This document shows, in pieces, positions 4,299-62,806 of a DNA stretch of 64,000 nt. The first letter of the stretch is position 1, and every line of letters begins with the position of its first letter. Under the pieces are notes generated by a model that had not been told where the DNA came from, searched no databases, and saw only the letters and a program-made list of their open reading frames with translations. Source of the DNA: Oscillospiraceae bacterium (lineage in GTDB: Bacteria; Bacillota; Clostridia; Oscillospirales; WRJC01); contig WRHM01000009.1 in assembly GCA_009783265.1 (NCBI GenBank), positions 29,339 through 93,338 of the forward strand, written 5' to 3'. A program made the position numbers and the translations under genes.

Positions 4299-4356
4299 AA
4301 AAATATAAAATGTTTTTCGAATAAATAAAACAAATAGTTTTGATTTCATCAGATTT

Positions 4357-4382
4357 GCGGGCGATTGGTAATCGCCCCTACA
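4357..4382 (-). repeat. GC-rich palindromic element, copy b (rc: tgtaggggcgattaccaatcgcccgc)
   Basis: Its reverse complement matches copy a at about 21/25 positions. It is also self-palindromic (gggcgatt-gg-taatcgccc). Confidence 0.6.
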
Positions 4383-4411
4383 AAAATACGAAAAGAGGTT
4401 AATTTAATATT

Positions 4412-6823: not shown

Positions 6824-6833
6824 GGAAATTTAT
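6824..6833 (+). repeat. Cassette 5' core motif GGAAATTTAT (copy overlapping the SBP start codon)
   Basis: Same 10-mer as at 11156, 59355 and 30050 (rc). Confidence 0.5.
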
Positions 6834-8407: not shown

Positions 8408-8422
8408 ATAAGCATTTTCTTC
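8408..8422 (+). repeat. Cassette 3' motif ATAAGCATTTTCTTC (copy 1)
   Basis: Exact 15-mer shared with 11978, 60732 and 29530 (rc). A 20-nt stretch is identical to copy 2 (agtataagcattttcttcag). Confidence 0.85.
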
Positions 8423-8464
8423 AGCTCCTATAAAATCAAATTAACCGTAACAAATATATATTTT

Positions 8465-9607
8465 CTACGGCAGCATATTTATCATTTCCAGACATAAGCG
8501 GCCGTTATGATACGGGCATTTCCACGCGCCGCATAAACCGCCTGAATTTTTAACTGCCTCGCCGTTTTCGTTTACGTAAACATACCATTCGCCGTAAGGC
8601 GAGATAAAATAATTTTTGACGTAATTCCATAGATTTTCAGCGAGAATCATAGATTTATTATTGCCGTATAAATTATACTGATGAACGAGAGCGACTATCG
8701 CTTCAGCCATTACCCACCACGAACGCGCTTTATTTTCGATGCCGTCTGTGCAGTCATAATAAACGCCGTTTCTGCCCTCGTCCACAAATCCTTTTGATAT
8801 TACGTTTTGCGCGACTTTTTCAAGTTTCGGCGATAAATTATTTGTTATATAAGCATTGCCCAAAACTTCGCAGGCCCTGTAAATCAGCCATGATATTTCT
8901 ATGTCATGCCCATAAGAGAGCATATCCCCAACCGGGTTCATAAATTTGTCAAAATAGCATTCAAGACGGCATAATTTATCGTTATACGCTTTATCTATAA
9001 CAAGATTAATCGAATATTCCAGCGCGTTTCGCGCTTCTTCTGATTTTACAGCCTGATAATATTCCGTATATGCCTCGATTATGTGCAATAAAGTATTCAT
9101 CGTTCGGGTGTATTTAAAATCGCGCCTGTCGAAGTTATATAATTCAAGATAACCGTATTCGTCTCTGAATTTATTTTCGATTAAATCAAATATTTTATTG
9201 GCGGCATTCAAAGCCGGTTCGTGTTTGCTTATTGAATAATACGCGCTGATCGAATATAACGCAAACGCCAAAGCATAAGTGTGTTTTTGATTATCGTCGA
9301 TTTTGCCGTCGTATTCGACCGACCAGTAGATCCCGCCGTCGGCTGGATCGAGCATATATTTTTTTATAAATTCAAATTGCAGTCTGGCAAAATCAAATAA
9401 TTTTTCATCTTTTAAAATTTTATAGCATGAACTGTAATACCATAGTATTCTTGTCTGTAAAACTGCCGCCTTCGGAGCTTTTTTGCTGATTTTATTATCG
9501 CTGTCAACGCTGCCGTAAAACCCGCCGTATTGAGTATCGTATAAATTATTCCAGAACGGCAGCAAATCATTTGTCAGATGATTTTGAAATTCTGATTTGT
9601 TGAGCAT
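8465..9607 (-). CDS. N-acylglucosamine 2-epimerase (AGE) superfamily protein (cellobiose 2-epimerase / mannose isomerase-like)
   Basis: N-terminal LTNDLLPFWNN...GGFYGS. Alpha/alpha-toroid-like repeat pattern. C-terminal KCPYHNGR motif. Confidence 0.8.
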   Translation of the reverse strand: MLNKSEFQNHLTNDLLPFWNNLYDTQYGGFYGSVDSDNKISKKAPKAAVLQTRILWYYSSCYKILKDEKLFDFARLQFEFIKKYMLDPADGGIYWSVEYDGKIDDNQKHTYALAFALYSISAYYSISKHEPALNAANKIFDLIENKFRDEYGYLELYNFDRRDFKYTRTMNTLLHIIEAYTEYYQAVKSEEARNALEYSINLVIDKAYNDKLCRLECYFDKFMNPVGDMLSYGHDIEISWLIYRACEVLGNAYITNNLSPKLEKVAQNVISKGFVDEGRNGVYYDCTDGIENKARSWWVMAEAIVALVHQYNLYGNNKSMILAENLWNYVKNYFISPYGEWYVYVNENGEAVKNSGGLCGAWKCPYHNGRLCLEMINMLP

Positions 9608-11136: not shown

Positions 11137-11153
11137 AAGTGATTTCATTAACG

Positions 11154-11167
11154 TAGGAAATTTATAT
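11154..11167 (+). repeat. Cassette 5' motif TAGGAAATTTATAT (copy upstream of GNAT-1)
   Basis: Exact 14-mer also found at 59353-59366 and 30046-30059 (rc). Confidence 0.85.
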
Positions 11168-11190: not shown

Positions 11191-11967
11191 ATGGATATTA
11201 ATAAAATACGCAGACAAATTATAAAAGAAGAAATGGAATTTCCTAAATCGTTCACGTTTTATGAGGAACGCGATTACGGTATATTGTATCATAATATTGA
11301 AAATCCAAATTCGGGCGACAGTAACCATTCTGTGATATATCCCGAAAGAATAACGGATTTGCGTTATGTGCTGAATGATATAGCAAATTTTTATGAAAGC
11401 AAAGGTAGCTCTTATTTATGTATTTATCACCCTTTTGTTGCGGATTATTTCATTGACAATGCGAAAATATTGAAGGAGTGCGGTTATGAATTTACTATCA
11501 GTCCCGATACTCCCGTTATGCTATTGACAGAAAAAAATAAAATAGACCTCCCAAAACGTCTTGATATACGTCATATCGCAAATTGGGATGAAAGCATCAA
11601 TAATGACGTATTAACGTGTGTAGCCAATAAAGAACATTTTACAACCGTAATAAAAAACAGCATGGGTGAGAACAACTATTTATTCATTGGTTATATTGAA
11701 AATGAAGCCGCCTCTTTGTTAGCCTTTCATGTATCAAAACATGGCGTTACAAGATTTGATGAAATGGGAACGGCTGAAAAACATAAAAATAAAGGTTATG
11801 CCCGTGAAATGAACAGATATGCGGCGGATTTTGTGCGTAACCATAATTTGCCGATAGCGTATCAATGGCCCGCCCATAAGACGTCCGAACGGATTACTAC
11901 TGAAGCGGGATTCAAGATAGCTTTCACTATACCGTCAGGTTCTGCAACGCTTGCCGAATATAGATAA
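11191..11967 (+). CDS. GNAT-family N-acetyltransferase (cassette gene G1)
   Basis: C-terminal acetyl-CoA motif region (FDEMGTAEKHKNKGYAREMNRYAADF). Own RBS cAGGAGag. Confidence 0.65.
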   Translation: MDINKIRRQIIKEEMEFPKSFTFYEERDYGILYHNIENPNSGDSNHSVIYPERITDLRYVLNDIANFYESKGSSYLCIYHPFVADYFIDNAKILKECGYEFTISPDTPVMLLTEKNKIDLPKRLDIRHIANWDESINNDVLTCVANKEHFTTVIKNSMGENNYLFIGYIENEAASLLAFHVSKHGVTRFDEMGTAEKHKNKGYAREMNRYAADFVRNHNLPIAYQWPAHKTSERITTEAGFKIAFTIPSGSATLAEYR

Positions 11968-11977
11968 ACCACGCAGT

Positions 11978-11992
11978 ATAAGCATTTTCTTC
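11978..11992 (+). repeat. Cassette 3' motif ATAAGCATTTTCTTC (copy 2)
   Basis: Exact 15-mer, 10 nt after the GNAT-1 stop codon. Confidence 0.85.
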
Positions 11993-19635: not shown

Positions 19636-19677
19636 TTTATTTTTTATTTAAAATTATTCAGGAGTATTTATTAATTT

Positions 19678-19930
19678 ATGAAAAGATTAAAAGATTATCT
19701 ATTGAACATGAATCCAAATTCAACGACTTACGAAGAATTATATGAGGGTAAAATGTTAGTCTGGCCCGTTCCGCTTGATTCTGACCCCGAATATATATAC
19801 GACAGCACATATTGGTATACAGTATCTGAACAGGTTATTTTACACAAGGAGAATTCTATGAAAAGATTAAAAGATTATTTATTGAACATGAATCCAAATT
19901 CAACGACTTATGACGAGATATATGAAGGGC
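19678..19930 (+). repeat. Tandem duplication of the 5' 60-codon module of the ATPase gene (period 180 nt)
   Basis: 19678-19737 and 19858-19917 are about 58/60 identical (both encode MKRLKDYLLNMNPNSTTY). Similarity decays afterwards (DSTYWYTVSEQ vs DSTYLYETLEHEQ). Confidence 0.85.
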
Positions 19931-21777
19931 TGATGGCTATTCCGGGTCAACCCCCGACACCGGTAAACGACAGCACATATCTTTATGAAACATTAGAGCA
20001 TGAACAAATAGCGTTTAAAATTGACAGGACACATAAACTTGCACTCGATAAACCTACTATCACGATAAGCATACCTATAAAAATGTTAGATTTAACTCCG
20101 AAAGATTGCAGTCATGTAGCGGCAAGCGATTATATTTTACGGTCTGCAAAAAAATATTTCGACGAGTTAAACGAAGAAATCATAAACCGAAAACGTCCCG
20201 CGAAAGAAACCGGAAGATATTATATTTATTCGCCCGGCGGCGAAGTTTTAAAACGAAACTGCGTATATTTTCAGGACGTTGAGAGAAAATATTACAGGCT
20301 TCTCGGATATAGAAAAGATAAATCAAAAGTAAACAATCATTATTTAATATCAATCCCGTCGATGTGGGACGACGTTCCTGAACTGCAAAGACTGCCCGAA
20401 TTCTGCGTGAATATTATGATACAGGTGCAATTACCCAATAAGCAGTTCAAAAAAACGATAAAAATGCTCACGCGTGATTTGCCGGACGCTGTTGACAGAT
20501 TTATTTTAGAATTTAACGTACAGAAACTTCGCGCAGCAGTCGCGTTAAACAAAAAACAGGAAGAAATACGCGAATGGCTCAGACAAAGCGATTACTGCGC
20601 GTTTATCGCTAACGGCGCGATATTGCCCAGAAAAGGCAACTCTCCCCTGCCTGCCGAAAACGCAGTCCCGTTTAAGTCTCCCGAATGTGACGAAATTACA
20701 GTCTGCGGACTTTTGGGCATGGGAATAAAAAAAGGCGTGACGGTTGTCACGGGAGGGGGTTATTCCGGCAAAAGCACTTTACTCGACGCAATCTCAGCCG
20801 GAATTTATAATCATATAAAAGGCGATGGCAGGGAATTTGTCATAACTGATGATACCGCGATAAAAATTTCGGCTGAGGACGGTCGGAGCGTAAAAAACAT
20901 AAATCTTTCCCAGTTTATAAAATGGCTGCCAAACAACGGTGACGTTTCACATTTTTATACAGAACACGCGTCGGGTTCAACGTCTCAGGCAGCGAACATA
21001 ATCGAAGCCGTGAATTTCGGTGCGAAACTGTTTCTGATAGACGAAGATAAAAGCGCGACGAATTTTATGATACGCGACGACATGATGAAAGAGTTGATAA
21101 AACGCGAGCCGATTACGCCGTTTACAGACAGGGTCCGGCAGTTATACGGCGAAGCCGGAATATCGACGATACTTGTTGTCGGGGGCAGCGGCGAATATTT
21201 ATCAGTTGCGGACAATGTTATCATGATGGACGAATTTCACGCGTTAAACGCAACGGAGCAGGCGAAAGAAATTTATAAAAACGTGAAAAATATCAACGGT
21301 TCTGTAGGGGCGCGCATTGCGCGACCGCAAAATATTCCGGAAACGGACGACCAATGGTCGCCCCTACAATCAAATAAATGCGAATGGTTCTCTGAGCGCA
21401 GATTAATCACAGAAAAATTTACTTCATATCCCAAAGAGAGCGAAGACGCTTACAGCGGCACGGAACGCCTTGAGATTTCAGACATGGGATTTATAATAAT
21501 CGGCGACGAAAAAATAGACGTAAGAAATCTGCACAATTTTATCTCGTTCGCGCAGATTAACGCCGTCGGATATATGCTGAGATATTTGGAACTGTCGAGT
21601 AGAGAAGCAGTCAGCGACATACAAAAAATCGTCGATGATTTATATGACATAATCGAAAAAAAAGGGGTAGAGTCTATTCATTCGACGTTTTTTAATTGTG
21701 AACGCTGGCTTGATATGCCGCGAAAATGCGAGCTTTACGCCGTAATCAACCGAATGAGGTTTGTTGATTTTATATAA
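19678..21777 (+). CDS. ABC-class ATPase domain protein (COG3044-type 'predicted ATPase of the ABC class')
   Basis: Walker A VTGGGYSGKSTLLDAI, Walker B LFLIDEDKSATNFM, and GDGREFVITDDTAIKISAEDGRSV typical of the family. Alternative start at 19858 has a better RBS (AAGGAG). Confidence 0.75.
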   Translation: MKRLKDYLLNMNPNSTTYEELYEGKMLVWPVPLDSDPEYIYDSTYWYTVSEQVILHKENSMKRLKDYLLNMNPNSTTYDEIYEGLMAIPGQPPTPVNDSTYLYETLEHEQIAFKIDRTHKLALDKPTITISIPIKMLDLTPKDCSHVAASDYILRSAKKYFDELNEEIINRKRPAKETGRYYIYSPGGEVLKRNCVYFQDVERKYYRLLGYRKDKSKVNNHYLISIPSMWDDVPELQRLPEFCVNIMIQVQLPNKQFKKTIKMLTRDLPDAVDRFILEFNVQKLRAAVALNKKQEEIREWLRQSDYCAFIANGAILPRKGNSPLPAENAVPFKSPECDEITVCGLLGMGIKKGVTVVTGGGYSGKSTLLDAISAGIYNHIKGDGREFVITDDTAIKISAEDGRSVKNINLSQFIKWLPNNGDVSHFYTEHASGSTSQAANIIEAVNFGAKLFLIDEDKSATNFMIRDDMMKELIKREPITPFTDRVRQLYGEAGISTILVVGGSGEYLSVADNVIMMDEFHALNATEQAKEIYKNVKNINGSVGARIARPQNIPETDDQWSPLQSNKCEWFSERRLITEKFTSYPKESEDAYSGTERLEISDMGFIIIGDEKIDVRNLHNFISFAQINAVGYMLRYLELSSREAVSDIQKIVDDLYDIIEKKGVESIHSTFFNCERWLDMPRKCELYAVINRMRFVDFI

Positions 21778-29130: not shown

Positions 29131-29151
29131 GTAGGGGACGCCGTCCCCTAC
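29131..29151. repeat. GC-rich palindrome gtaggggacg/ccgtcccctac (TAGGGG family-like), overlapping the DUF2493 stop codon
   Basis: Near-perfect 10-bp-arm palindrome with no T-run on either side. Confidence 0.6.
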
Positions 29152-29492
29152 AAAAATATTTCCACAGGTTTATTTAACTGATAGCATTTTATAACCGTAT
29201 CGGCCGTCCCCTTTGATTTACCGTCCCAGAAAGCCAGAACCATGTGGGCATACCTGACGATTTCAGAGTTTCTGATAAACGCGGCGGATTTGCCGTATCT
29301 TTTATATTCGGGCAAAAATTCTTTAAATAATAATCCGTGTTCTTTTGCGTAACGGTGCGCGAGAGTATCTATCCCCTCTGCGCCGCCGCTGACTATTTCG
29401 GTGCAGTTTTTGGGGATACTCCCGCATATTTTATCATACCAGTACTCTTCTTTGTTTTGTATATCTCTTGACCCGACTATCGCAACTCTCAT
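29148..29492 (-). CDS. DUF2493/SLOG-family protein
   Basis: MRVAIVGSRD...IVSGGAEGIDTLA...AFWDGKSKGT pattern of the DprA-like SLOG/DUF2493 family. No recognisable SD upstream. Confidence 0.65.
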   Translation of the reverse strand: MRVAIVGSRDIQNKEEYWYDKICGSIPKNCTEIVSGGAEGIDTLAHRYAKEHGLLFKEFLPEYKRYGKSAAFIRNSEIVRYAHMVLAFWDGKSKGTADTVIKCYQLNKPVEIFL

Positions 29493-49636: not shown

Positions 49637-50563
49637 TTAATGCTCCTGTGGGTTCACATGAACCATGCAGTGCTTTACTCTGGGATTTACTTTTTCCACT
49701 GCGTCATGAATATTTTCGGCTATATCATGAGTTTGATTTAAACTCAGATTACCGTCTGCGCTGATTTCTATGTCAACGTATATTTTATCGCCAAAAAGCC
49801 TCGTCTTTAACTGGTCGATCTTAAAATCTCCCTGATTTTGTATTGCCTCGCGTATTTCTTCGATTGTTTCGTCGCTTGCAGTTCTATCAGTCATTTTGCC
49901 TATAGCGTCCATAAAAATATTATACGCCGCTTTTACTATAAATACACAGATAATAATACATGCCGCCGAATCCAGTATAGGAAACCCCAATCGCGCGCCG
50001 AGTATCCCCACAAAGCTGCCCACTGATGATAAAGCGTCGGAACGGTGGTGCCATGCCCCAGCCATCAACGCAGTCGAATTTATTTTTTTCGCGAAAATTT
50101 TCGTATACCAGAACAAGCCTTCTTTGACCGCAATCGAAACCACAGCCGCAATCAGTGCAAGCAGACCGGGTATAGCCAAACTTTGATAATCGCCTGAAAA
50201 AATATTTTTTGCTCCGCCGTATCCGATAACAAATCCGGTAGCGGCAAGAATTGCCGCGAGAATAATCGCCACAACGCATTCAAACCGTTCATGACCATAA
50301 GGATGCTCTTTGTCTGATTTTTTATTTGACAGTTTTATGCCGACCAAGACAATCGCCCCGCCTAAAATATCTGACATAGAATGGACCGCGTCTGATACCA
50401 TCGCCATCGAGCCGGCAATAATTCCGGCTGATAATTTAAAAGCTGTTAAAATTATATTGAACAAAATGCCGACAAAACTCACCTGTACGGCAATTTGTTC
50501 ATTGCTTTTACTGCTTTTATTTTTTTCGTTTGTATTTTTTGTATCGTTTATATCGTTTGTCAT
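49637..50563 (-). CDS. Cation diffusion facilitator (CDF) family metal efflux transporter (CzcD/FieF-like)
   Basis: Six TM with HSMSD and HHRSD metal-site motifs and a C-terminal cytoplasmic domain. GGAGGT RBS. Confidence 0.85.
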   Translation of the reverse strand: MTNDINDTKNTNEKNKSSKSNEQIAVQVSFVGILFNIILTAFKLSAGIIAGSMAMVSDAVHSMSDILGGAIVLVGIKLSNKKSDKEHPYGHERFECVVAIILAAILAATGFVIGYGGAKNIFSGDYQSLAIPGLLALIAAVVSIAVKEGLFWYTKIFAKKINSTALMAGAWHHRSDALSSVGSFVGILGARLGFPILDSAACIIICVFIVKAAYNIFMDAIGKMTDRTASDETIEEIREAIQNQGDFKIDQLKTRLFGDKIYVDIEISADGNLSLNQTHDIAENIHDAVEKVNPRVKHCMVHVNPQEH

Positions 50564-50671: not shown

Positions 50672-50735
50672 AAAAATAAAAAAAGCACACCAATAATGGA
50701 ACAATATTACTGTCCCACAGATGTGCGTGTAAATC
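50672..50735 (-). terminator. Intrinsic terminator forming the expression platform of the riboswitch-like leader
   Basis: GCACAUC...GGUGUGC stem followed by U7AU5. Its 5' arm overlaps the 3' strand of leader helix P4. Confidence 0.55.
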
Positions 50736-50805
50736 ACCTGCTGCCGCATTATCGCGACCCAGCCCCATAAACATTAAAATTAAAAGTTTATCGCCTGATC
50801 AGTTT
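50709..50805 (-). promoter_or_regulatory. Candidate NiCo (czcD-motif) riboswitch aptamer
   Basis: Four helices can be drawn: P1 ACUG/CAGU; P2 AUAAAC/GUUUAU; P3 GUCGC/GCGGC; P4 CAGGUG/CAUCUG. Junction strings are CUGGG, GCAGCAGG and CUGUGGGACAG. It sits between a consensus promoter and a CDF gene. Confidence 0.55.
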
Positions 50806-50855
50806 ATTTTGTACTGTAATTTATATGCAGTGCAAATAGTAGCCCTATATTTATT

Positions 50856-51408: not shown

Positions 51409-52539
51409 ATGCCGCTTTTTAAATATGAGGCGGTCACGGCAAAATGCAGATGCCTTTACGGTAAACTTCTCGGGCCGAAAGACTACGAGAATCTGCTGAA
51501 ATGCCCGGACGTCTCAGATATAGCGGTTTATCTTCAGGACAATACTGCTTATCATGAATTTCTCAATGGGTCTGATCTGAGAAGGATCAACAGAAATAAA
51601 CTTGAGTATTATATCAAAAAGAGTATGCTCAACGATTATTTAAAAATGTATAAATTCACTTTCGGAAACGAGAGATATTTTATAAATTTGCTTATGGCTA
51701 AATATGAGCTTGAATATATTTTAAGGGCATGGCGTGAATATGTCCTTAAAAATATCGAAAATAATAATAATTCTGTATCAAAACCGAACGAATCAGAAGA
51801 AGATTATTTTTTGGGCAAGGGGATTCTTGAAATACAGATGATTTATCAGAATAATCCCCGAATTGACATAGAGGCGCTGAAAAATATCACAAATGCCGAG
51901 CAGTTTATAAACGCGATAAAAAACAGCGACTTTTTTTATATTTTTGAAAAGCATATAAAAGACGATATATCAAAAAATTATACTGAAATAGAAACTGCGG
52001 TTTACGACGATTATTATAAAATTTTATACGACAGCGCGGAAATATTTGAAAAAGAGACAAGAAAAAAAATTCAGGATTCTATAAGCACGCACGCGGATTT
52101 GCTGAATTTGTGCAGAATATCAAGAATGCTTTTTAATTTCAAAGCCGGTCCGGAAGAAATCATGCCGCTGCTTGTTCCGCTTCGCAACAGGCTTAAACCG
52201 GATAATATAAACGCACTTCTCAAATCAAATGACAGGGAAAAATTTTTATTATACTGCCAGTCTAATTTATCATACGGCGAAAAGCAGTCTTTTTATGCTT
52301 ATGATTCTATGTCGTCGTATATGAATTCTTTTTTGTATAAATATTATAAATCAAAGATAAAAGTATCGTCGTCGGGATTTGAAGTTATAGTCCGTTATTT
52401 TCACGTCAAGGAATTTGAAGTTATGAATCTGTTTTATCTGACAGAGGGGATAAGATATAAAATGACTCCGGATTATATAAGAAAAAATATATACGGGCTT
52501 GATTATGACCCTAACAAATCATCAAGGGGGGCGGTATAA
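51409..52539 (+). CDS. ntpC: V-type ATPase subunit C (V0 d-type)
   Basis: Size, operon position and all-helical composition. Contains an Asn-rich insert. Confidence 0.65.
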   Translation: MPLFKYEAVTAKCRCLYGKLLGPKDYENLLKCPDVSDIAVYLQDNTAYHEFLNGSDLRRINRNKLEYYIKKSMLNDYLKMYKFTFGNERYFINLLMAKYELEYILRAWREYVLKNIENNNNSVSKPNESEEDYFLGKGILEIQMIYQNNPRIDIEALKNITNAEQFINAIKNSDFFYIFEKHIKDDISKNYTEIETAVYDDYYKILYDSAEIFEKETRKKIQDSISTHADLLNLCRISRMLFNFKAGPEEIMPLLVPLRNRLKPDNINALLKSNDREKFLLYCQSNLSYGEKQSFYAYDSMSSYMNSFLYKYYKSKIKVSSSGFEVIVRYFHVKEFEVMNLFYLTEGIRYKMTPDYIRKNIYGLDYDPNKSSRGAV

Positions 52540-52540
52540 T

Positions 52541-54508
52541 ATGTCTGTAATAAAATTAAAATTGATGAGCATATCCGGCAGTATGAGCGATTTCGATTCT
52601 GTTTTATATTATTGCGTGACTGACCCGTATCTTCATGTCGAGGACGCTTCGTCTGTGATACACGGACTAAAAGAGATTACGCGCTCAAACGGGAACAATC
52701 CGTATAAAGATTTATCGTCAGGAATCGAAAGCCTCGCCGCCGCCGCTAATATCGACCTTCATGAAAAACTGAAAACCGCTGTCAGGTCTGAAAAGTTTGA
52801 TAAGCCTGATATGCGTGAAAAATCTGATATGCCTGATTTTATGAATAATTTTGATGTAAATATAGAAAAAGCTCAGAACTGGATAAAAACCCAAACAGAA
52901 AAAATAAACATCCAGAATGACGAGATAAGCAAGGCTAATAATCTCGTCAAAGAAAACCAGAAAATTTTGGCGCAGCTTGAGCATATCGGCGACATATCAG
53001 CTAATTTAGACGCTCTTTTTAATTTTGAGTTTTTCAAGTTCAGGTTCGGGCACATGCCGCGCGAAGCGTATGATTCTATAACAATGTACGGGATGGCTGA
53101 TACAGATGATGTGTTTTTTATTCCGTCGTCTCTCGAGAGAAACGAAGTATGGGGAATATATTTTACCCCGAGGACAAAAAGTGTAAAAGTAGATTCGATG
53201 TTTTCGGTCCTGCATTTCGAGAGGGTAAGAATATCTGAAAAAGCTCACGGGACTCCCGAAAACGCAAAACGCGAACTCATAAAAGAAATAGAATCTATAA
53301 AAAATAAAATAAATGAATTAAATGCCGGGCTTTTTGATATTATAACTGAGACCAACGAACTGATAGACAGGAATTATAAAAAAATATATCTGCTTTTTAA
53401 TATATACGAACTGAGAAAAAAGACTGTTCAGGCAAATTCGGAATTTCAGATGCTTGTTTGGCTTCCGGAAAATCACGTTGGTAAATTTTCGGAAAAACTT
53501 TCGTGCCTGCCGACTGTTGTCTCATCTGTGAATTCCCCCTCGGATATACCGTCGATAAAACCGCCGACGCTGCTTAAAAATTTTATTTTATTCAGGCCGT
53601 TTGAGCAGTTTGTGAAAATGTACGGGCTGCCGTCCCATAACGAAATAGACCCGACGCCGTTTTTAGCCCTGACTTATATATTATTTTTCGGAATTATGTT
53701 CGGGGACGTCGGTCAGGGTTTGGTTATATCTCTTGCGGGATTTCTGGTATGGCGGCTAAAAAAGATAAATCTTGGCAGGATTGCGGGAGTTTTAGGACTT
53801 TCATCAGTTATATTTGGATTTATATTCGGCTCGGTCTTCGGGATGGAAAATATAATTGGGGGATATAATCCGTTAGAGCATATCAATACAGTTCTGATTG
53901 CCGCCGTCGGCTTGGGAATTGCGACTGTGTCCTGCGCGATTATATTAAATATATTAAACGGCATAAAACAAAAAAATATCGAAAAGATTTTCTTTTCCCA
54001 AAACGGGTTTGCGGGGCTTATATTTTACTGGGGCGTGATTACCGCGGGTCTTGTGATGATGAAATTCGTGGCTTTGAATATACCGGTTTCAACTATTGTT
54101 TCACTTGTTTTAATATGCGTTGTTTTAATATATTTAAGAGAGCCGCTGGCAAATATAATAGTTCGTAAACCTAAGATAATACCTCATAGTCCGGTGGAAT
54201 TTTTTGTAGCTAATTTATTTGAGATATTCGAGATTATTTTATCGTTTCTCACAAATACGGTTTCGTTTATCAGGGTCGGGGCTTTCGCATTAAATCATGT
54301 GGGAATGATGAGCGTAGTCATGCTTCTTGCGGAGAACGCGTCCGGCGGGAAAAATCCTGCGGTTTTAATTTTGGGCAATATAATAGTAATCGCGCTTGAG
54401 GGGTTGATTGTGGGGATACAGTGTTTAAGATTGCAGTATTACGAAATATTCGGCAGGTTTTTTGAGGGCGACGGACGAAGTTTTGAGCCGAGTGAATTTT
54501 CAAAATAA
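52541..54508 (+). CDS. ntpI: V-type ATPase subunit I (a-type membrane subunit)
   Basis: N-terminal soluble coiled-coil half plus a C-terminal multi-TM half with the conserved R in FIRVGAFALNH. Start at 52541 follows GGGGGG. Confidence 0.85.
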   Translation: MSVIKLKLMSISGSMSDFDSVLYYCVTDPYLHVEDASSVIHGLKEITRSNGNNPYKDLSSGIESLAAAANIDLHEKLKTAVRSEKFDKPDMREKSDMPDFMNNFDVNIEKAQNWIKTQTEKINIQNDEISKANNLVKENQKILAQLEHIGDISANLDALFNFEFFKFRFGHMPREAYDSITMYGMADTDDVFFIPSSLERNEVWGIYFTPRTKSVKVDSMFSVLHFERVRISEKAHGTPENAKRELIKEIESIKNKINELNAGLFDIITETNELIDRNYKKIYLLFNIYELRKKTVQANSEFQMLVWLPENHVGKFSEKLSCLPTVVSSVNSPSDIPSIKPPTLLKNFILFRPFEQFVKMYGLPSHNEIDPTPFLALTYILFFGIMFGDVGQGLVISLAGFLVWRLKKINLGRIAGVLGLSSVIFGFIFGSVFGMENIIGGYNPLEHINTVLIAAVGLGIATVSCAIILNILNGIKQKNIEKIFFSQNGFAGLIFYWGVITAGLVMMKFVALNIPVSTIVSLVLICVVLIYLREPLANIIVRKPKIIPHSPVEFFVANLFEIFEIILSFLTNTVSFIRVGAFALNHVGMMSVVMLLAENASGGKNPAVLILGNIIVIALEGLIVGIQCLRLQYYEIFGRFFEGDGRSFEPSEFSK

Positions 54509-54559
54509 ATAATAAATTAAAAATAAATAACAAAAAAACAAAGGGGATTTAGATGTTTT

Positions 54560-55048
54560 ATGAATAGCATATTTTCTGTTGTATTTATAATTATTTTATT
54601 TGTGGCGGCGTTTTCGCCGTTGATTTTAGCCGGGAAAAATATTATCAAAAAAAAATCGTCTAAAAAAACCGCGCTTATTATAAACATAGTTTCGGTTTTT
54701 TCGCTGTGCGTTTTGATTTTCGCAGCATCGGCGTTAAACGTCGTTTTTGCCGCCGATGAACCCGGCGAAAACACAGTCCAAGAAGATTCTGCTGAAGCTG
54801 TCGGATCTGTTGAAACCGGAGCGGGGGTAAGCATGGGAGCAGGGATAGGAATGCTGGCGGCTGCGCTTGCGACCGGATTAAGCGGTTTAGGCGGGGGCAT
54901 TGCGGTCGCGTCGTCGGCTTCGGCGGCAGTAGGCGCAATATCTGAAAACCCGAAAGTTTTCGGTCAGGCATTGATATTTGTCGCGCTTGCCGAGGGAGTC
55001 GCGCTTTACGGGCTTATTATATCGTTGCAGATTTTAGCGAAATTATAA
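54560..55048 (+). CDS. ntpK: V-type ATPase proteolipid subunit K (c-type) with non-homologous N-terminal extension
   Basis: C-terminal hairpin GIGMLAAALATGLSGLGGG...ENPKVFG...FVALAEGVALYGLI (ion-binding Glu). The N-terminal 80 aa are two hydrophobic segments plus an acidic linker. Confidence 0.8.
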   Translation: MNSIFSVVFIIILFVAAFSPLILAGKNIIKKKSSKKTALIINIVSVFSLCVLIFAASALNVVFAADEPGENTVQEDSAEAVGSVETGAGVSMGAGIGMLAAALATGLSGLGGGIAVASSASAAVGAISENPKVFGQALIFVALAEGVALYGLIISLQILAKL

Positions 55049-55090
55049 GGTGTGCCAAGCTTTTTTATGAAAGAGAGGGTTCTCGATAAA

Positions 55091-55405
55091 ATGAAAATGT
55101 TCTTGCTGAGCGACAACAGCGACACATGGGAGGGCATGAGGCTTGCCGGAGTTGACGGGGTTATACTTCATTCCCATCAGAAAGAAGAAATCGAAGCGAA
55201 AATAAAAGAACTTATAAAATCCGATGATACAGGTATTATTTTAATAACTGAGAAACTGAGAATTTTATGTCAGGATTATATAGATAATATAATGCTCAAG
55301 TATAAAAAGCCCCTGTTTCTGGAAATACCGGACAGGCACGGTTTCGGACGCTCAAAAACGTCGATTACGGATTATATAAAAAAATCTATAGGTTTGAAAT
55401 TGTAA
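55091..55405 (+). CDS. ntpF: V-type ATPase subunit F
   Basis: About 104 aa, with the MKMFLLSDNSDT...GIILITE pattern and operon position. Confidence 0.75.
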   Translation: MKMFLLSDNSDTWEGMRLAGVDGVILHSHQKEEIEAKIKELIKSDDTGIILITEKLRILCQDYIDNIMLKYKKPLFLEIPDRHGFGRSKTSITDYIKKSIGLKL

Positions 55406-55432
55406 AATAACAGAAACGGCGGTGATATTTAA

Positions 55433-56056
55433 ATGCCTTTGAGCGCTGAAGAAAAACTTGATAACTTCGCGAAAGAAGCCATAACCGACGCAAAGCATAT
55501 AAGCCAAGAAATAGACCGGCAGACAAAATTTGAATTTCAGGAAAAAACTAAAGACGGCAGGAAAAAAATCTTTGCCCAGACACAGGACTATATTCAAAAA
55601 GAGACAGAAAAGATAAAAAAAGAAAAAAGTATGGAGACATCGCAGGCTAATATAAAAACAAGACAGGATTATTTTAAATACGCAGACTCTATATCGTCCC
55701 GCGTGTTTGAATCTGTGAACACAAAACTCAAAAATTTCACAGAATCAAATGATTACGAAGATTATCTTTTTCAGTCCTGCAAAAATGTCATAGAAAAAAA
55801 CGGGGTGACCTTAGGCATATTTTATATGCCCGGAGACGAAGAGATTATGACTGTGAAAATCAAAAATAAACTTGACGGATTATTTGATATTTCGCAGGTT
55901 GAATTTATAAAAGACGAAACTATAAAAACCGGCGGGCTGCGCTTTTTTGACCATGTAAAAAATATATTGATAAACGATGTATTCGACGAAAAGACAGAGC
56001 GTGCAAAAGAATTATTGAATTCTATAATCGGCCCGCACTTTACGGCTGTGAGATAG
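55433..56056 (+). CDS. ntpE: V-type ATPase subunit E
   Basis: 207 aa with an N-terminal long charged helix and a C-terminal globular domain. Operon position supports it. Confidence 0.75.
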   Translation: MPLSAEEKLDNFAKEAITDAKHISQEIDRQTKFEFQEKTKDGRKKIFAQTQDYIQKETEKIKKEKSMETSQANIKTRQDYFKYADSISSRVFESVNTKLKNFTESNDYEDYLFQSCKNVIEKNGVTLGIFYMPGDEEIMTVKIKNKLDGLFDISQVEFIKDETIKTGGLRFFDHVKNILINDVFDEKTERAKELLNSIIGPHFTAVR

Positions 56057-56078
56057 AAAATAAATAATAGAAATTAAT

Positions 56079-56105
56079 ATAGGGGTGACCCTTGCGGTCG
56101 CCTTA
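56079..56105 (+). repeat. TAGGGGCG-family palindromic element (ataggggtgacccttgcggtcgcctta)
   Basis: ggtgacc-cttgc-ggtcgcc hairpin. Inverted partner lies at 56156-56182. Confidence 0.65.
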
Positions 56106-56131
56106 TTAACAAACATAAGAGGTGCAATAAC

Positions 56132-57934
56132 TTGAACAATGAAAGTGAAAGCAACGGCGGGCGGCCGCAAGGGTCTCCCCTGCGAATATATGGGATAAAC
56201 GGCCCTGTCGTGACTATATCCGGGCATACGGATCTGAGTATGCAGGAAATGGTGTTTGTCGGGGGGAAAAAACTGATAGGGGAAGTTATAAATATATCAG
56301 ACGATAAAACTACTATACAGGTTTACGAAAATACGACGGGGCTTTATTCGGGCGAGCCTGTGGAATCGACAGGTTATCCGATACGCGCTACTCTGGGCCC
56401 CGGTATGCTGTCGAATATTTATGACGGAATCCAAAGGCCTTTAAAAGCTATAGAAAATATATCGGGATATTATATTAAAACAGGGATAGATGTCTCCAGC
56501 ATAGATTATGAAAAAAAATGGGATATAAAAATTTTAGCAAACGAGGGGCAAAAAGTAAATCCCGGAGATATATACGCCGAATGCGACGAAACGTCTGTGA
56601 TAAAACATAAATTTATGATACCCGGCAATATTTCCGGTATTATAGAATCGGTTGTTTTAAACGGCAAATATTGCGTAAACGACGAGATTTTAAAAATAAA
56701 AACAGAATCCGGCGAAATTGCGAGTATTAATTTAACCGAAAAATGGGCGATAAGAAAGCCCCGGCCGGTTAAAGAACGTCTGGAGCCTAAAACTCCGTTG
56801 ATTACCGGGCAAAGGGTAATAGATACTCTTTTCCCGATAGCTAAAGGCGGAGCCGCCGCAATCCCCGGCGGATTCGGCACGGGCAAAACTATGCTCCAGC
56901 ATCAACTGGCGAAATGGAGCGACGCGGATATAATAGTATATGTCGGCTGCGGTGAGCGGGGCAACGAGATGACGCAGGTATTAGAAGAATTTTCTGAGCT
57001 TGTTGACCCGAAAACCGGCAAAAGTATGCTTGAGCGGACTGTTTTGATTGCAAACACTTCAAATATGCCTGTCGCGGCACGCGAGGCATCGATTTATACG
57101 GGGATAACGATAGCCGAATATTACAGGGATATGGGTTATCATGTTGCGATAATGGCGGATTCTACGTCAAGATGGGCTGAGGCGTTGAGGGAAATATCGG
57201 GACGGCTTGAAGAAATGCCCGCCGAAGAAGGATTCCCGGCTTATCTGCCGTCGAGATTATCGGCGTTTTATGAGAGAAGCGGGATAGTCGAAAATCTGAA
57301 CGGCAGTATCGGTTCTCTGACAATAATCGGGGCTGTGTCCCCTCAGGGCAACGATTTTTCGGAGCCTGTCACCCAGAATACAAAAAGATTTATCAGATGT
57401 TTTTGGGCATTAGAAAAATCTTTGGCTTATTCGCGGCATTACCCCGCGATAAACTGGACTACAAGTTACAGCGAATATCTTGTTGAATTAGACGGCTGGT
57501 TCACTGAAAACGTAAATCCTGAGTTTAACAAATGCCGCGCGATAATAAAAAATATACTGAACGATGAAAATCAATTAATGGAAATCGTAAAATTAATCGG
57601 CAGCGATTTGCTTGCCGACGACCAGAAATTGATTTTGGAGACTGCGCGGGTTATAAGATCGGGATTTTTACAGCAGAACGCCACGCATCAGAACGATTCA
57701 TATTCACCTATCGAAAAACAGTATCTCATACTTGAAGTTATAATAAAATTATACGACAGGGCAAAAGAATTAATATCGCGCTCAGTTCCTGTTTCGCAAT
57801 TAAAAGAGAGCGGTGTGTTTGACATGATAATACGCGCGAAGTACGAGATACCCAACGATAAATTGGAGATGTTCGGCGAATTGTTGGATAGTATAGAGAA
57901 GAAGATAAAAGAAATCGAGGATAGATATAATTGA
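56132..57934 (+). CDS. ntpA: V-type ATPase catalytic subunit A
   Basis: Walker [16 protein letters not shown] and [16 protein letters not shown] start with an AGAGGTG RBS. Codons 9-17 are encoded by a palindromic repeat copy. Confidence 0.9.
56156..56182 (-). repeat. TAGGGGCG-family palindromic element inside the 5' end of ntpA (21/23 identical to 1908-1930)
   Basis: gggcggccgcaagggtctcccct vs gggcggccgcaaaggtcgcccct. Its reverse complement is 19/21 complementary-compatible with 56082-56102. Confidence 0.7.
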
Positions 57935-59337
57935 TTATGAACAACATAGAATATATAGGATTATCACAGATAAACGGGCCGCTGATTGTTATCGACGGGA
58001 TAGAAAACGACTGTTATGAAGAACTCGTGGAAATCATAAGCAAAGACGAAAAACGTCTGGGAAGAATAATACAAATAGAGGGAAACAGAGCCGTTATTCA
58101 GGTTTTTGAAGGGACGAACGGCCTCTCCCTCAACAATACAAGAACGAGATTGCTCGGCGAGCCTATGAAATTTGCGGTAAGCAGGGATATATTGGGCAGG
58201 ATTTTCGACGGGGTCGGGCGGCCTATCGACGGCTACGGGGAAATATTCGCCGAAGCTAAGCTCGATATAAACGGCAGCTCGATAAATCCTGTGTCAAGAG
58301 ATTACCCGAGAGATTATATAAGAACGGGAATATCTTCGATTGACGGCTTGGCGACATTGATAAAAGGGCAGAAACTGCCGATATTTTCAGGGTCGGGCAT
58401 GAGCCATAACGAGCTTGCGGCTCAGATAGTAAGCCAAGCTAATGTCGAAGGCTCGGACTACGCGATAATTTTCGCCGCTATGGGCGTAAAAAACGACGTG
58501 GCGCAGTATTTCAGGCGTTCTTTTGAAGAAACGGGGGTTTTATCAAGAGTCGTGATGTTTATGAATCTTGCCAACGACCCTATAATCGAGAGAATCACAG
58601 CCCCCCGCTGCGCGCTGACTGCCGCTGAATTTCTCGCCGCGCAATACGGCATGGACGTTCTTGTGATTATGACCGACATGACTTCTTACGCCGAGGCACT
58701 GCGCGAATTTTCATCGGCGAAAGGCGAAATCCCGGGAAGAAAAGGCTATCCGGGATATTTGTATTCGGATCTGGCTTCGCTTTATGAAAGAGCGGGGAAA
58801 ATAAAAAATATAAATGGCTCTGTCACGCAAATCCCAATTTTAACTATGCCAAACGACGATATTACGCACCCTGTACCGGACTTGACGGGATATATAACCG
58901 AGGGTCAGATAGTTTTGTCGCGTTCGCTTGAACAAAAAGGGATTTATCCGTCGGTTTCGGTATTATTATCTTTGTCAAGGCTGATGAAAGACGGCATAGG
59001 GACAAAATATACGCGGGAGGACCATTCGGCAGTCTCAAACCAGCTATATTCTTCTTATGCCAAAGTCGAGGACGCGCGCTCTTTAGCATCAGTTATCGGC
59101 GAAGAAGATTTGTCCCCGATTGATAAATTATATATAGAATTCGGGCGCAAATTCGACAGTATATTTTTAAACCAGTCCAAATCCGACAACAGGACGATTG
59201 ATACTACGCTTGATTTAGGCTGGCAGCTTTTATCGCTTTTGCCAAAAGAAGAATTAGACAGGTTAGACCCGAAGCTTTTGGAGCAAAAATACGGCAAAGT
59301 CAATGTTATCGAGGATAATACGGATAGTATGAATTGA
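57931..59337 (+). CDS. ntpB: V-type ATPase subunit B
   Basis: [19 protein letters not shown] and the degenerate P-loop typical of B subunits. Confidence 0.9.
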
Positions 59338-59352
59338 TGTAAAGATTAAACT

Positions 59353-59375
59353 TAGGAAATTTATATTTTCTTCGT
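59353..59375 (+). repeat. Cassette 5' motif TAGGAAATTTATAT fused to left copy of 11-bp direct repeat ATTTTCTTCGT
   Basis: 14-mer identical to 11154 and 30046 (rc). ATTTTCTTCGT (59365-59375) recurs at 60738-60748. Confidence 0.85.
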
Positions 59376-59391
59376 AAAAAAAGGAGAACAA

Positions 59392-60714
59392 ATGAAGTAC
59401 AATCTTGAAATTAAAATAGTGCCGAAAGAACATTATATAAAAGTTAGCGGAAATATAAAAAATATAGAAAACGATATAAATTTATTTTATCTCAACGAAA
59501 ATTTTACGCTTAATAAATTAACAAACGGGCAAAACGATATTAAATATATACATGATAAAAATAAACCTCACCCTTTATATGACTTGACCTCGCGCCCTGT
59601 AATTTTGCAAACTGCTGTAAAAGAATTAGAGTTTGAATATGACGGGTATATTCCTGAAATAACAAACGATATAAACCAAATTGACGAAGATATTGTAGAG
59701 CTTTCAGGTTATTCAGGCTGGTATCCGAAAGATATTATATATACAGAAAATACCGAAACGCTTGAACCTCACATTAAAAACGGAGATTTTGCGTTTGAAT
59801 TGAATATCGAATTGCCAAACGAGTATATTTTTGCGGCTAACGCGGAAATAAAAAATATTGAAAAATCATCAAATATTACAATATATAATATTTCTTCATA
59901 CGGTGACGATTTTGATATTGCTCTTTTTGCCTCGAATAAAGTAGTAAAGATTGAAAAAAGCTTAAACGGAATTTATTTTTCTTCGATATGCCCATTTATT
60001 ATGGAAAAGAAAAACACGCTTAAATTAGATAATTTAATTGAGGGGCAAAAAATAATAACAGAGTTATTAGGCGAGCCAATCAAAAAGCAACCAACTTGTT
60101 TTATTAATCGTCCACGCGGCGGCTGGGGGTATGCACGAACTGCATTTGTTTCAATGCCCGGAATAACAGACGAGAATGACGAAAACTTAAAAGATTTGTC
60201 AGAAAAATCCATGATACTTAGTATCGGCGGAGATTTACACGAACTTTCTCATTTTTGGTGGGGCATTGCTTCGGGAATTGAGCCGGAAGATTGGATAAAC
60301 GAAAGCGGTGCGGAATTTACAATGCTTGCTGTTTTGAAAGATATGATTAAACTGGATGATTATAAAACTTTAATAGAAAAAAACGGATATATTAAACATA
60401 TAAATGAACTTGAATCAGAAGCTGCCATTTGCGAAACTAAAACAGACGAATGGGACGCAAGATATGTAAACAGATATGAAAAAACCGCAATTATGTATAT
60501 TGGCGCGGAAATTCGTTTCGGCAGAAAAAATCTTTTTGAATTTTTAAAAGAATTTTACAATCAGAATAAAACAGAATGTAATGCGACTACTGATAAATTT
60601 TTAGATATATGCGAAAAAGTTTTAGGAAAAGACTCAAGAGAATATTTTAATTGGCTATTATATGCAAAAGGCTGGAAAAATATTGATATAGAAAAAGATA
60701 TATTAAAATATTAG
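59392..60714 (+). CDS. M1-like gluzincin metallopeptidase (cassette gene P) inserted between ntpB and ntpD
   Basis: HELSHFWWG...WINESGAEF (HExxH plus a downstream WxNE Glu ligand). Own RBS AAAGGAG. Confidence 0.65.
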   Translation: MKYNLEIKIVPKEHYIKVSGNIKNIENDINLFYLNENFTLNKLTNGQNDIKYIHDKNKPHPLYDLTSRPVILQTAVKELEFEYDGYIPEITNDINQIDEDIVELSGYSGWYPKDIIYTENTETLEPHIKNGDFAFELNIELPNEYIFAANAEIKNIEKSSNITIYNISSYGDDFDIALFASNKVVKIEKSLNGIYFSSICPFIMEKKNTLKLDNLIEGQKIITELLGEPIKKQPTCFINRPRGGWGYARTAFVSMPGITDENDENLKDLSEKSMILSIGGDLHELSHFWWGIASGIEPEDWINESGAEFTMLAVLKDMIKLDDYKTLIEKNGYIKHINELESEAAICETKTDEWDARYVNRYEKTAIMYIGAEIRFGRKNLFEFLKEFYNQNKTECNATTDKFLDICEKVLGKDSREYFNWLLYAKGWKNIDIEKDILKY

Positions 60715-60731
60715 ATTTATTTATGTTCAAA

Positions 60732-60748
60732 ATAAGCATTTTCTTCGT
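60732..60748 (+). repeat. Cassette 3' motif ATAAGCATTTTCTTC (copy 4) + right copy of direct repeat
   Basis: Exact 15-mer, 17 nt after the peptidase stop codon, flanked by GTTCAA on both sides. Confidence 0.85.
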
Positions 60749-60781
60749 TCAACCAAAATTTATTACAGGTATTATAAATTT

Positions 60782-61393
60782 ATGGAAACAAATATATTCC
60801 CGACAAAAAGCAATTTATTGCAAACCAAACGCTCACTTGATCTTGCGAGAGTGGGCTTTGAACTTCTGGATAAAAAAAGAGTTATCATGCTGCGCGAAAT
60901 GATGTCGCTCATGCACGATATAGAAGGCGTTCAGGAACAAATCGATATAACTTTTGCCGATGCTTACGCGTCTTTGCAGAAAGCGAATTTTACTGTCGGG
61001 CAGAGCGAAATTTTGAATATCACTAATTATAATATTTTCCCCGACGATATAAATATCCAGTTTAAGTCAGTTATGGGAGTTGAGATACCTGTTGTATATT
61101 ATGACGAGAAGCCCCCAAAATTAAATTACGGGTTCGCGTTCACTAATTCTGATCTTGACGACGCGTATATAAAATTTCTTAAAGTAAAACATCTGACAGC
61201 AATGCTCGCCGCAATCGAAAACAGCGTTTACAGGCTTGCGTTCGCGATAAAACAGGCGCAGAAAAGGGCGAACGCTTTAAGAAATATAGTTATCCCAAGA
61301 CTTGAGCAGACAGTATATTTTATTACCGGCTATCTGGAAGAAAAAGAGCGTGAATCGTTTACGGTGCTTAAAGTTATAAAACATAAAAAATAA
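60782..61393 (+). CDS. ntpD: V-type ATPase subunit D (central stalk)
   Basis: N-terminal PTKSNLLQTKRSLDLARVGFELLDKKR and C-terminal coiled coil typical of subunit D. Confidence 0.85.
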   Translation: METNIFPTKSNLLQTKRSLDLARVGFELLDKKRVIMLREMMSLMHDIEGVQEQIDITFADAYASLQKANFTVGQSEILNITNYNIFPDDINIQFKSVMGVEIPVVYYDEKPPKLNYGFAFTNSDLDDAYIKFLKVKHLTAMLAAIENSVYRLAFAIKQAQKRANALRNIVIPRLEQTVYFITGYLEEKERESFTVLKVIKHKK

Positions 61394-61423: not shown

Positions 61424-61452
61424 TACAGGGGCGATTAATAATCGCCCCTACG
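61424..61452. repeat. TAGGGGCG-family palindrome (ctacaggggcgattaataatcgcccctacg); probable terminator of the ntp operon
   Basis: aggggcgatta-a-taatcgcccct perfect arms. Same arm sequence as 4272-4382. Confidence 0.7.
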
Positions 61453-61485
61453 TAATTAAATTTTTTATATTATGCGAAAAAATTG

Positions 61486-61552: not shown

Positions 61553-62806
61553 ATGAATTTTGTAGAAGATAATCTTGACTTTTTAAAATCATACGACCCG
61601 GAGCTTGCAGGCACTGTCGAAAAAGAAATCAAACGCCAGAAACGCAATATCGAGCTTATAGCGTCTGAAAATTTTGTCTCGCCCGCAGTTTTAGCCGCCG
61701 CCGCGACTGTCCTGACGAATAAATATGCCGAGGGTTATCCCGGCAAAAGATATTACGGCGGATGCGAATGCGTGGACGAAGCCGAAACTCTGGCGATAAA
61801 CAGGGCAAATAAATTATTCGGATCTAATTTTGCCAATGTTCAGCCCCACAGCGGAGCTCAGGCCAATACAGCCGTTTATTTCGCGCTTTTGCAGCCGGGA
61901 GATACTGTTTTGGGCATGAGCCTTGCCAACGGCGGGCATCTGACGCACGGCAGCCCGGTAAATATATCGGGTATGTATTATAATTTTATCTCTTACGGAG
62001 TCGAGGACGACACGCATGTTATAAATTATGAAAAAGTCGAGGAGCTGGCAATGCAGCATAAGCCGAAATTAATAGTCGCGGGGGCGTCGGCTTATCCGAG
62101 GGCGATTGATTTTGAAAAATTCGGGCGGATAGCAAAAAAATGCGGCGCGTATTTGATGGTCGATATGGCGCATATCGCCGGGCTTATCGCGGCGGGACTT
62201 CACCAGAACCCTGTTTTATATGCCGACGTTGTAACTACTACTACGCATAAAACTTTAAGGGGTCCCAGAGGCGGCATGATTCTCATGAACGACGAAGAGA
62301 TCGCGAAAAAGATAAACAAAGCCGTATTCCCCGGAATACAGGGCGGCCCGCTGATGCATATAATCACGGCAAAAGCAGTATGTTTCGGCGAAGCGTTAAA
62401 ACCTGAGTTTAAAGTTTATCAGAGGCAGATAATAAAAAACGCAAAGGCTTTAGCCGAAAGCCTGACAGCCGAAGGCTTTAAATTAATATCCGGCGGGACG
62501 GACACGCATTTAATGCTTGTGGACTTGAGGGATTTTAATATTACGGGCAAAGAAATGGAAAAGAAACTTGACGAAGTATATATAACCGTAAATAAAAACG
62601 CGATACCGAACGACCCTCAGAAGCCCGCTTTCACAAGCGGTATAAGAGTGGGAACTCCGGCGGCGACGTCAAGAGGTTTTGTTGAAGAAGACATGCCGGT
62701 CATCGCGAATTTATTTAGGCTTACGGCAACGGAATTTGACGCAAAAGCCGATTATATCAGGGACGAAGTGGGCAAATTATGCGAAAAATATCCATTATAT
62801 GAATAA
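61553..62806 (+). CDS. glyA: Serine hydroxymethyltransferase
   Basis: [10 protein letters not shown], the PLP-Lys motif [14 protein letters not shown], and [10 protein letters not shown]. Confidence 0.95.

Follow-up and report, generated by a model that had tools for sequence, protein, structure and literature searches.

How does a foreign gene come to lie inside the operon of a multi-subunit machine? The question is raised by a 64,000-nucleotide (nt) window, a stretch of a metagenome-assembled genome of a termite-gut Oscillospiraceae bacterium whose positions give the window coordinates below, in which a peptidase gene (59392-60714, + strand; 440 amino acids, aa) separates ntpB from ntpD in a V/A-type ATPase operon. 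The gap between ntpB and ntpD is 1444 nt here, which breaks the rule that B is followed by D in such operons. That rule, stated in an initial annotation of the locus, is borne out in other V-type operons: in 69 GTDB genomes representing species that have a related ntpD, no gene lies in the gap, which never exceeds 375 nt, about 56 more distant metagenome contigs with both genes have gaps of at most ~205 nt, and the spacers of 13 close relatives (ntpD 75-89% identical) measure 0-30 nt and hold little beyond a conserved leader, roughly AAATTTATTWCAGGWTTTAWAATT-ATG. The B-peptidase-D arrangement is 100% identical in three separate assemblies (JGI, ENA and Logan), which excludes an assembly artefact or chimera.

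An inserted peptidase gene

Both composition and distribution set the peptidase gene apart from its surroundings. With 31% GC and a GC content at third codon positions (GC3) of 0.26, it is the lowest in both measures among 50 window genes (GC3 mean 0.43, standard deviation 0.05). Its relatives number just 13 among 5.8 billion proteins, and homologues at 59-87% identity occupy unrelated contexts (loci from other genomes are given as L numbers): in L001, with a zinc-type ABC ATPase gene on one side and on the other a URO-D-like gene, after which comes the permease gene of the transporter; in a four-gene low-GC block 3' of valyl-tRNA synthetase in L002; between chorismate mutase and enoyl reductase in L004; beside a PD-(D/E)XK transposase fragment in L158; between an amidohydrolase and a GNAT gene in L159; and with a phospholipase-C-like gene in L160. 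Host genes in L001, L002 and L160 have GC3 values of 0.57-0.72, against 0.27-0.33 for the peptidase copies; for L001 alone the values are 0.59-0.68 against 0.27. At the nucleotide level the window copy shares 88% identity with those of L001 and L158, equal to the closeness of window ntpB and ntpD to their nearest relatives; the gene has therefore crossed between clearly different hosts.

The peptidase is missing from the ntpB-ntpD junction of all the other genomes examined, even of relatives whose ntpB and ntpD are 94% identical, and it is therefore not a conserved accessory subunit. A peptidase recruited to the V-ATPase, for example as a processing or quality-control protease kept by selection, would suit the shared strand, the tight spacing, the missing terminator and the intact catalytic residues, but this absence and the unrelated contexts of the homologues make such a role very improbable. 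We conclude from these comparisons that the peptidase gene is foreign DNA put into the ntpB-ntpD spacer in one termite-gut Oscillospiraceae lineage, directly 5' of the ~25-nt ntpD leader. The initial annotation had likewise taken it for a non-native insertion, and what it had set against this, a peptidase at this position in all relatives or conserved as an accessory component, is contradicted by the absence of the gene from all others examined.

The operon around the insertion is otherwise conventional. Subunits C(d), I, K, F, E, A, B and D are encoded on one strand (+) with tight spacing, and together match PF01992, PF01496, PF00137, PF01990, PF01991, PF00006 (twice) and PF01813, as in V/A-type operons. 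The upstream part (51409-59337), identified by Pfam and NCBIfam matches, comprises subunits C/d (51409-52539), I (52499-54508), K (54560-55048), F (55052-55405) and E (55433-56056), ntpA (56132-57934) and ntpB (57931-59337; NCBIfam V-type subunit B, 706 bits); ntpD (60782-61393; V-type ATPase subunit D, PF01813, E=1.4e-48) lies beyond the insert. The A-B junction is compact, that is, empty, judging from its sequence. Directly 5' of ntpD the native leader AAATTTATTACAGGTATTATAAATTT (60756-60781, +), which is kept in relatives with empty and with filled junctions, is intact, and the peptidase gene has been placed 5' of it.

Transcription from the ntp promoter most likely runs through the peptidase gene, without polarity on ntpD, since the gene has a strong Shine-Dalgarno sequence (AGGAG, 59382-59386) and no + strand promoter-like or terminator-like site occurs in either flanking spacer (left, 59338-59391, + strand, 54 nt, which holds the 5' motif, the left repeat copy and the Shine-Dalgarno sequence; right, 60715-60781, + strand, 67 nt). 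The initial annotation had reached the same view of expression, having found no terminator between the peptidase gene and ntpD.

The protein is, on its predicted structure, a two-domain M1-like zinc metallopeptidase. The gluzincin signature reported earlier is present in the open reading frame (ORF), with HELSH at residues 283-287 and WINE at 301-304, and H283, E284, H287 and E304, the residues of the zinc-binding signature of M1 enzymes, are invariant across the 13 homologues. The second His is separated from the Glu by 16 residues, against the usual 18; the Pfam PF01433 match reaches 19.7 bits, under the cut-off of 27.7, which leaves the protein outside the M1 profile; and searches of NCBIfam and, by sequence, of the PDB gave no match. 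An AlphaFold model (predicted local distance difference test score, pLDDT, 85) has the N-terminal beta domain and thermolysin-like catalytic domain of the M1 fold, and its top Foldseek match is 6ifg, a two-domain M1 peptidase of D. radiodurans (E=5e-18, template modelling score about 0.6). The GxMEN exopeptidase motif is absent, its region being replaced; GGWGYAR (243-249), in a low-confidence loop, presumably takes roughly the place of GxMEN relative to HExxH. With invariant zinc ligands and a matching predicted fold, the protein looks functional.

The ntp junctions of relatives

The genome of the window is one of several in which this operon has been opened. We compared close relatives with ntpD 79-94% identical, most arrangements being found in at least two separate assemblies. 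Between B and D lie an ECF sigma factor gene and a DUF4097 gene in L078 and L162; SAM methyltransferase and GNAT genes in L163, with the same GNAT-D junction on the short contigs L079 and L164; and an HTH-XRE membrane protein gene in L166, the same gene adjoining the 5' side of ntpD in L081 and L167. The A-B junction holds an HTH-XRE membrane protein gene in L080 and L165, a gene for a 239-aa protein in L166, where the B-D junction is filled as well, VapB, PIN, kinase and phosphofructokinase genes in L168, and a solute-binding protein gene in L091. Other genes lie directly 5' of ntpD in L082, L083 and L087, where ntpB is off the contig, and doublets of repetitive extragenic palindrome (REP)-like sequence, GTAGGG...CCCTAC, fill the B-D spacer in L085, L098 and L168. 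Every junction cargo is on the operon strand and has a GC3 below that of the flanking ntp genes. The downstream order of the window (D, then SHMT) is kept in L162 and L166, and L162 also keeps the Big_2/CAP gene after SHMT, so these are alternative contents of one locus.

These alignments indicate that the A-B and B-D junctions are recurrent insertion sites in this clade, with differing same-strand cargo in different close relatives. Price, Arkin and Alm (2006, PMC1480536) report that genes join operons at the ends far more often than they insert within them, which makes recurrent insertion at two junctions inside one operon unusual. A search of the literature for insertions in V-ATPase operons gave no relevant paper.

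Several further observations concern these cargos and their surroundings. The HTH-XRE membrane protein gene (L080 1402-2309 and L165 4684-5547 at A-B; L166 7177-8000 at B-D) carries its own promoter and an operator palindrome, GGCAACCGATAGTTGCC, and its copies are ~80% identical in nucleotides (a by-eye estimate from the alignment). The solute-binding protein cargo of L091 (1035-2558) and a solute-binding protein gene elsewhere in the window (6832-8331) are full-length homologues with 29% identity. The interval from SHMT to an MgsA-like gene 3' of the operon is also variable (L162 9128-11029, L163 9149-10222), with the Big_2/CAP protein gene in the window and L162 and an aminotransferase gene in L163, so gene turnover extends beyond the ntp junctions. 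Run against the cargos, PADLOC defence-system profiles gave generic HTH and methyltransferase matches only.

Boundary motifs and the direct repeat

The initial annotation had pointed to 5' and 3' cassette motifs at the ends of the peptidase insert, and both recur, at three and four window sites. The 5' boundary motif TTAGGAAATTTATAT (59352-59366, +) has the core GTAGRAAAT, here TTAGGAAAT. The 14-mer TAGGAAATTTATAT occurs at 11154, 30046 (- strand) and 59353, each time just 5' of a gene, and variants of the motif are found in L168 (three copies), L002 and L159, giving a consensus of ~30 nt overall. At the other end the 14-mer TAAGCATTTTCTTC occurs at 8409, 11979, 29530 (- strand) and 60733, each time just 3' of a same-strand gene, and also in L160, with variants in L168. 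Written as patterns, the 5' element is GTAGRAAATTTATAT and the 3' element TAAGCATTTTCTWC. The 8-mer TAAGCATT has 19 matches in 237 kb of close-relative DNA, 12 of them intergenic against an intergenic fraction of 12%, and 8 of the 19 lie within 80 nt past a same-strand stop codon.

Two other window genes carry both motifs. Cassette C1 (11153-11992, +) consists of a 5' motif (11153-11167), a gene for a 258-aa protein with no Pfam family (11191-11967; GC3 0.32) and a 3' motif (11979-11992), placed between an enolase-superfamily gene and SDR genes within a sugar-acid gene cluster. Cassette C2 (29530-30060, -) consists of a 5' motif (30060-30046), a GNAT acetyltransferase gene (30044-29544; GC3 0.28) and a 3' motif (29543-29530), between galactokinase and an SLOG/DprA-like gene. 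Together with the peptidase gene these have the three lowest GC3 values of the 50 (1 chance in 19,600). The cassette motifs are therefore real, since they recur and mark the three lowest-GC3 genes, and they mark foreign single genes between co-directional host genes. We conclude, on composition and motif recurrence, that the peptidase gene belongs to a small class of low-GC single-gene cassettes, with (G)TAGGAAATTTATAT as their 5' and TAAGCATTTTCTTC as their 3' boundary. A gene-free motif pair in a convergent spacer (8409-8468, +), formed by a 3' motif (8409-8422) and an inverted 5'-type core ATTTTCTAC (8460-8468), may be an empty or decayed cassette; this solo 3' motif lies 78 nt 3' of the solute-binding protein gene at 6832-8331.

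A possible cassette array occupies positions 1090-4700 of L002, between valyl-tRNA synthetase and yajC. It comprises four same-strand genes (184 aa, the peptidase homologue, 188 aa and 166 aa) of GC3 0.33-0.37, with the host at ~0.7; three of the four are followed by TAAGCATT and the fourth by the related TACGCATT, and a promoter-like block of 55 nt, with the 5' motif at its end, is repeated twice.

The insert is further bounded by an 11-nt direct repeat. The initial annotation reported ATTTTCTTCGT at 59365-59375 and 60738-60748 (both +), 1373 nt apart from start to start, and without mismatch it occurs at these two places alone. The left copy shares 2 nt with the end of the 5' motif, and TAAGCATTTTCTTC, the 3' motif, has the right copy as its tail; GTTCAA stands on both sides of the right-hand 15-mer (60725-60730 and 60747-60752), again as described before. 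The right copy also falls in a 27-nt block, AAAATAAGCATTTTCTTCGTTCAACCA (60729-60755, +), which holds the 3' motif (60733-60746) and shares 24 of its 27 nt with the end of the L168 B-D spacer (p<1/3000). L168 has nested REP doublets and no peptidase gene between a 5'-type motif and this block, which is thus a resident or common landing element and not specific to the peptidase. An origin of the repeat as a target-site duplication is not supported: the 11-mer belongs to a motif that follows four genes, its right copy lies within the block shared with L168, and C1 and C2 have no such repeat.

We suggest that in the repeat the 3' core itself, and no random target sequence, has been duplicated, the outcome that a Campbell-type single crossover at a short identical core would leave. 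The incoming DNA, probably circular, would carry ATTTTCTTCGT preceded by TAAGC and followed by AAAAAAAGG, and the resident element already at the junction would read ATTTTCTTCGT between TTTAT and TCAACC. Such DNA would integrate at whatever short identity the target offers, conserved cassette ends often supplying it. Two inserts in relatives are flanked by repeats of their own, a 14-nt repeat that duplicates the ntpB start in L091 and a 23/25-nt repeat of the 5' element in L168. Repeat length and sequence thus vary among inserts, which argues against a transposase making a fixed duplication and fits short-identity recombination. To arrival of the peptidase gene by single-crossover integration at a short shared sequence we give a little under an even chance. 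In L091 (1000-1037) a mini-ORF of 12 codons starts with the left 14-nt copy, and its stop and the cargo start codon overlap (ATGA), an overlap that would preserve translational coupling.

Several results weigh against single-crossover integration. When the two spacers (54 and 67 nt) are shuffled by mononucleotides, 0.66% of the shuffles give an exact match of at least 11 nt between them, and this local p of 0.007 covers this spacer pair, not all gene flanks; 2 of 35 window gene-flank pairs also reach an 11-nt match, so the repeat alone is merely suggestive. It gains weight because each copy lies within or adjoins a motif that recurs elsewhere. It is found in the peptidase cassette only, the 5' motifs of C1 and C2 continuing into other sequence. 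Around four other inserts in relatives there is no repeat of at least 10 nt, and the L163 insert has just a 10-nt match with one copy inside ntpB. The initial annotation predicted that deleting one repeat and the insert would restore a 70-nt empty site. An identical 11-nt core does stand at both peptidase junctions, but neither this site nor the attB-like 22-mer that Campbell-type integration would predict for empty alleles is in any of 201 fetched loci, a result that is not decisive because the nearest relatives differ by ~12-15% in nucleotides, and the empty junctions of relatives are much shorter and have no 11-mer. Of the peptidase homologues elsewhere, those in L159, L160 and L002 are accompanied by variants of the motifs, while the closest copies, in L001 and L158, have neither motif. 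Most ntp-junction cargos in relatives have no motifs, so the hot spot and the motif-bounded cassettes may be separate phenomena. Finally, no recombinase, transposase or integrase was found among the ~40 annotated window genes.

The same gene-flank matches, the motif-free and repeat-free junction cargos and the missing recombinase would all follow if the gene had entered by untargeted illegitimate recombination, or if the whole B-D interval had been swapped with that of a relative by homologous exchange, the repeat being coincidental and the motifs conserved donor untranslated ends. The genes would then have brought the motifs, as a translation-initiation region and a 3' tail, from one low-GC donor lineage, and the motifs would play no part in recombination; the 5' element includes a Shine-Dalgarno sequence, adjoins the start codon in C2, resembles the AGG plus AT-rich start regions usual in this genome, and in L002 sits 3' of a TATAAT box, like a transcript start. 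Chance is unlikely, however, to have set the left repeat copy exactly against the 5' motif and the right copy as the tail of the 3' motif; identical 14-mers are found around unrelated genes and in genomes of very different GC; and the 27-nt right block stands at the same junction of L168 without the peptidase, so it has not simply travelled with it. We regard untargeted entry as a serious but rather unlikely explanation.

The motif cores themselves suggest another. GTAGRAAAT and ATTTTCTWC form imperfect inverted repeats (7 of 9 positions in the window, 8 of 9 in L168), and 9 of 13 matches to the core 9-mers fall in spacers, against the 12% intergenic fraction. A non-autonomous transposon of the mobile-insertion-cassette type, a passenger gene between these short imperfect ends (GTAGRAAAT ... 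ATTTTCTWC) that relies on a transposase or HUH/Y1 enzyme acting in trans and encoded elsewhere, would account for this enrichment and for cassettes in hosts of differing GC content; the enzyme might be the mover of the GTAG-headed REP palindromes, whose doublets lie at the same B-D junction (L085, L098 and L168) and also in the window. We think it quite improbable, as there is no target-site duplication outside the inverted cores in C1, C2 or C3, the 11-mer being itself part of a motif; there are no subterminal hairpins; no transposase was found in the window; and a 7/9 match in AT-rich sequence is weak evidence.

A broader reading, which we consider doubtful, is that the cassettes represent a new mobile kind in gut Clostridia: promoterless, low-GC and mostly single-gene, inserted co-directionally into operons by way of some recombinase, crossing between genomes that differ in GC and using V-ATPase junctions as landing pads. 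Its members would have a ~30-nt 5' element (T)AACGYAGRAAATTTATATT..., the 3' element given above and inverted 9-nt cores.

Other searches at the boundaries were negative. The spacer and L002 inter-gene DNA fold no better than shuffles (z -1.1 to +1.4), which leaves no attC-like or other hairpin there, and RNA pairing of the 5' with the 3' motif was likewise no better than shuffles. Scans of IMG/VR for the motifs and the predicted empty site gave zero or chance-level single matches, and the window contains no tRNA gene as an integration target. As dif/Xer, CodY-box, cre or sigma-H sites the motifs showed no convincing fit, compared by eye with consensus sequences. The left spacer aligns with the ntpD 5' end of L078 (p=0.0125) and with the peptidase 5' ends of L001, L158 and L002 (p 0.004 to <0.0005); we do not rely on readings of it as a decayed gene start, because start regions in these genomes share the AGG plus AT-rich pattern.

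Known cassettes and operon insertions

The case presents known themes, gene cassettes and insertion hot spots, in a new form. The cassettes are reminiscent of those of integrons, which are also promoterless, mostly single-gene, co-directional units with diverse cargo, read from an upstream promoter, with a short core repeated at both ends of the integrated cassette; L002 may offer a four-gene array. Unlike integron cassettes, the peptidase flanks have no attC-like imperfect palindrome (GTTCAAC fits RYYYAAC, with no partner GTTRRRY), neither an intI integrase nor attI occurs among the ~40 annotated genes, and the insertions are scattered in ordinary operons of a host in Bacillota, not gathered at one platform.

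The mobile insertion cassette (MIC) MIC231 of Bacillus cereus carries a peptidase gene, as the window cassette does. MICs and passenger-carrying miniature inverted-repeat transposable elements also resemble it in being transposase-free, with a passenger gene bounded by short inverted repeats, but here no target-site duplication adjoins the inverted cores, insertion-sequence ends are not recognisable and no cognate transposase was found in the window (for the term MIC see PMC6199540 and PMC5444012). The dif modules of Acinetobacter plasmids, in which XerC/D sites flank the genes (PMC7399989, PMC6160057), are similarly discrete gene units; at their boundaries lie short sequences in inverse orientation that resemble recombination sites, and they too have no recombinase of their own close by. 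The window motifs differ from the 11-6-11 dif architecture and from the conserved XerD arm (compared by eye with a consensus), and the window cassettes are chromosomal and lie inside operons. As an insertion that gains a newcomer gene expression from the native promoter, the peptidase gene resembles the operon insertions described by Price, Arkin and Alm (PMC1480536), whose own example is ptr, a zinc protease gene inserted into recC-recB; what differs is that here two internal junctions of one operon have been hit repeatedly in one clade.

REP-type elements provide a further parallel: like the motifs here they are GTAG-headed and insert into spacers, and their doublets stand at the B-D junction of three relatives, but the peptidase flanks have no palindrome or hairpin and the cassette holds a full-length gene. 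REPINs and REP elements are reportedly moved by RAYT transposases (work ascribed to Bertels and Rainey, 2011). In the window, GTAGGGG-headed REP-like palindromes (GGGCGATT..AATCGCCCCTAC) lie at 4277-4306, 4359-4388 and 61429-61458, and more of them just past the stops of the genes at 29148-29492 (-) and 61553-62806.

Three other features of the window lie apart from the insertion. An Rfam scan found solely a NiCo (nickel/cobalt) riboswitch (50708-50812, -; 71 bits, gathering score 37), away from the cassette and directly 5' of a cation-diffusion-facilitator transporter gene (49637-50563, -). The start of an ABC_ATPase P-loop protein gene (19678-21777) contains a 72-nt segment (19677-19748) that is repeated 180 nt further on (19857-19928) with 92% identity. 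The 12-mer TGTGATATAATA, which looks like an extended -10 promoter box, occurs in spacers at 13555 (-), 31446 (+), 31560 (-) and 33804 (+).

Operons for multi-subunit machines are thought to resist internal insertion, yet here one has been opened at two junctions many times in a narrow clade, apparently without being destroyed. The ntp operon offers a natural system for how foreign genes gain expression from a core operon. Should the motifs prove to be recombination sites, they would point to a system of uncultured gut Bacillota that exchanges cassettes outside the integron paradigm; should they be no more than untranslated ends from a donor, the ntp junctions would still be a clear, documented operon-internal hot spot.

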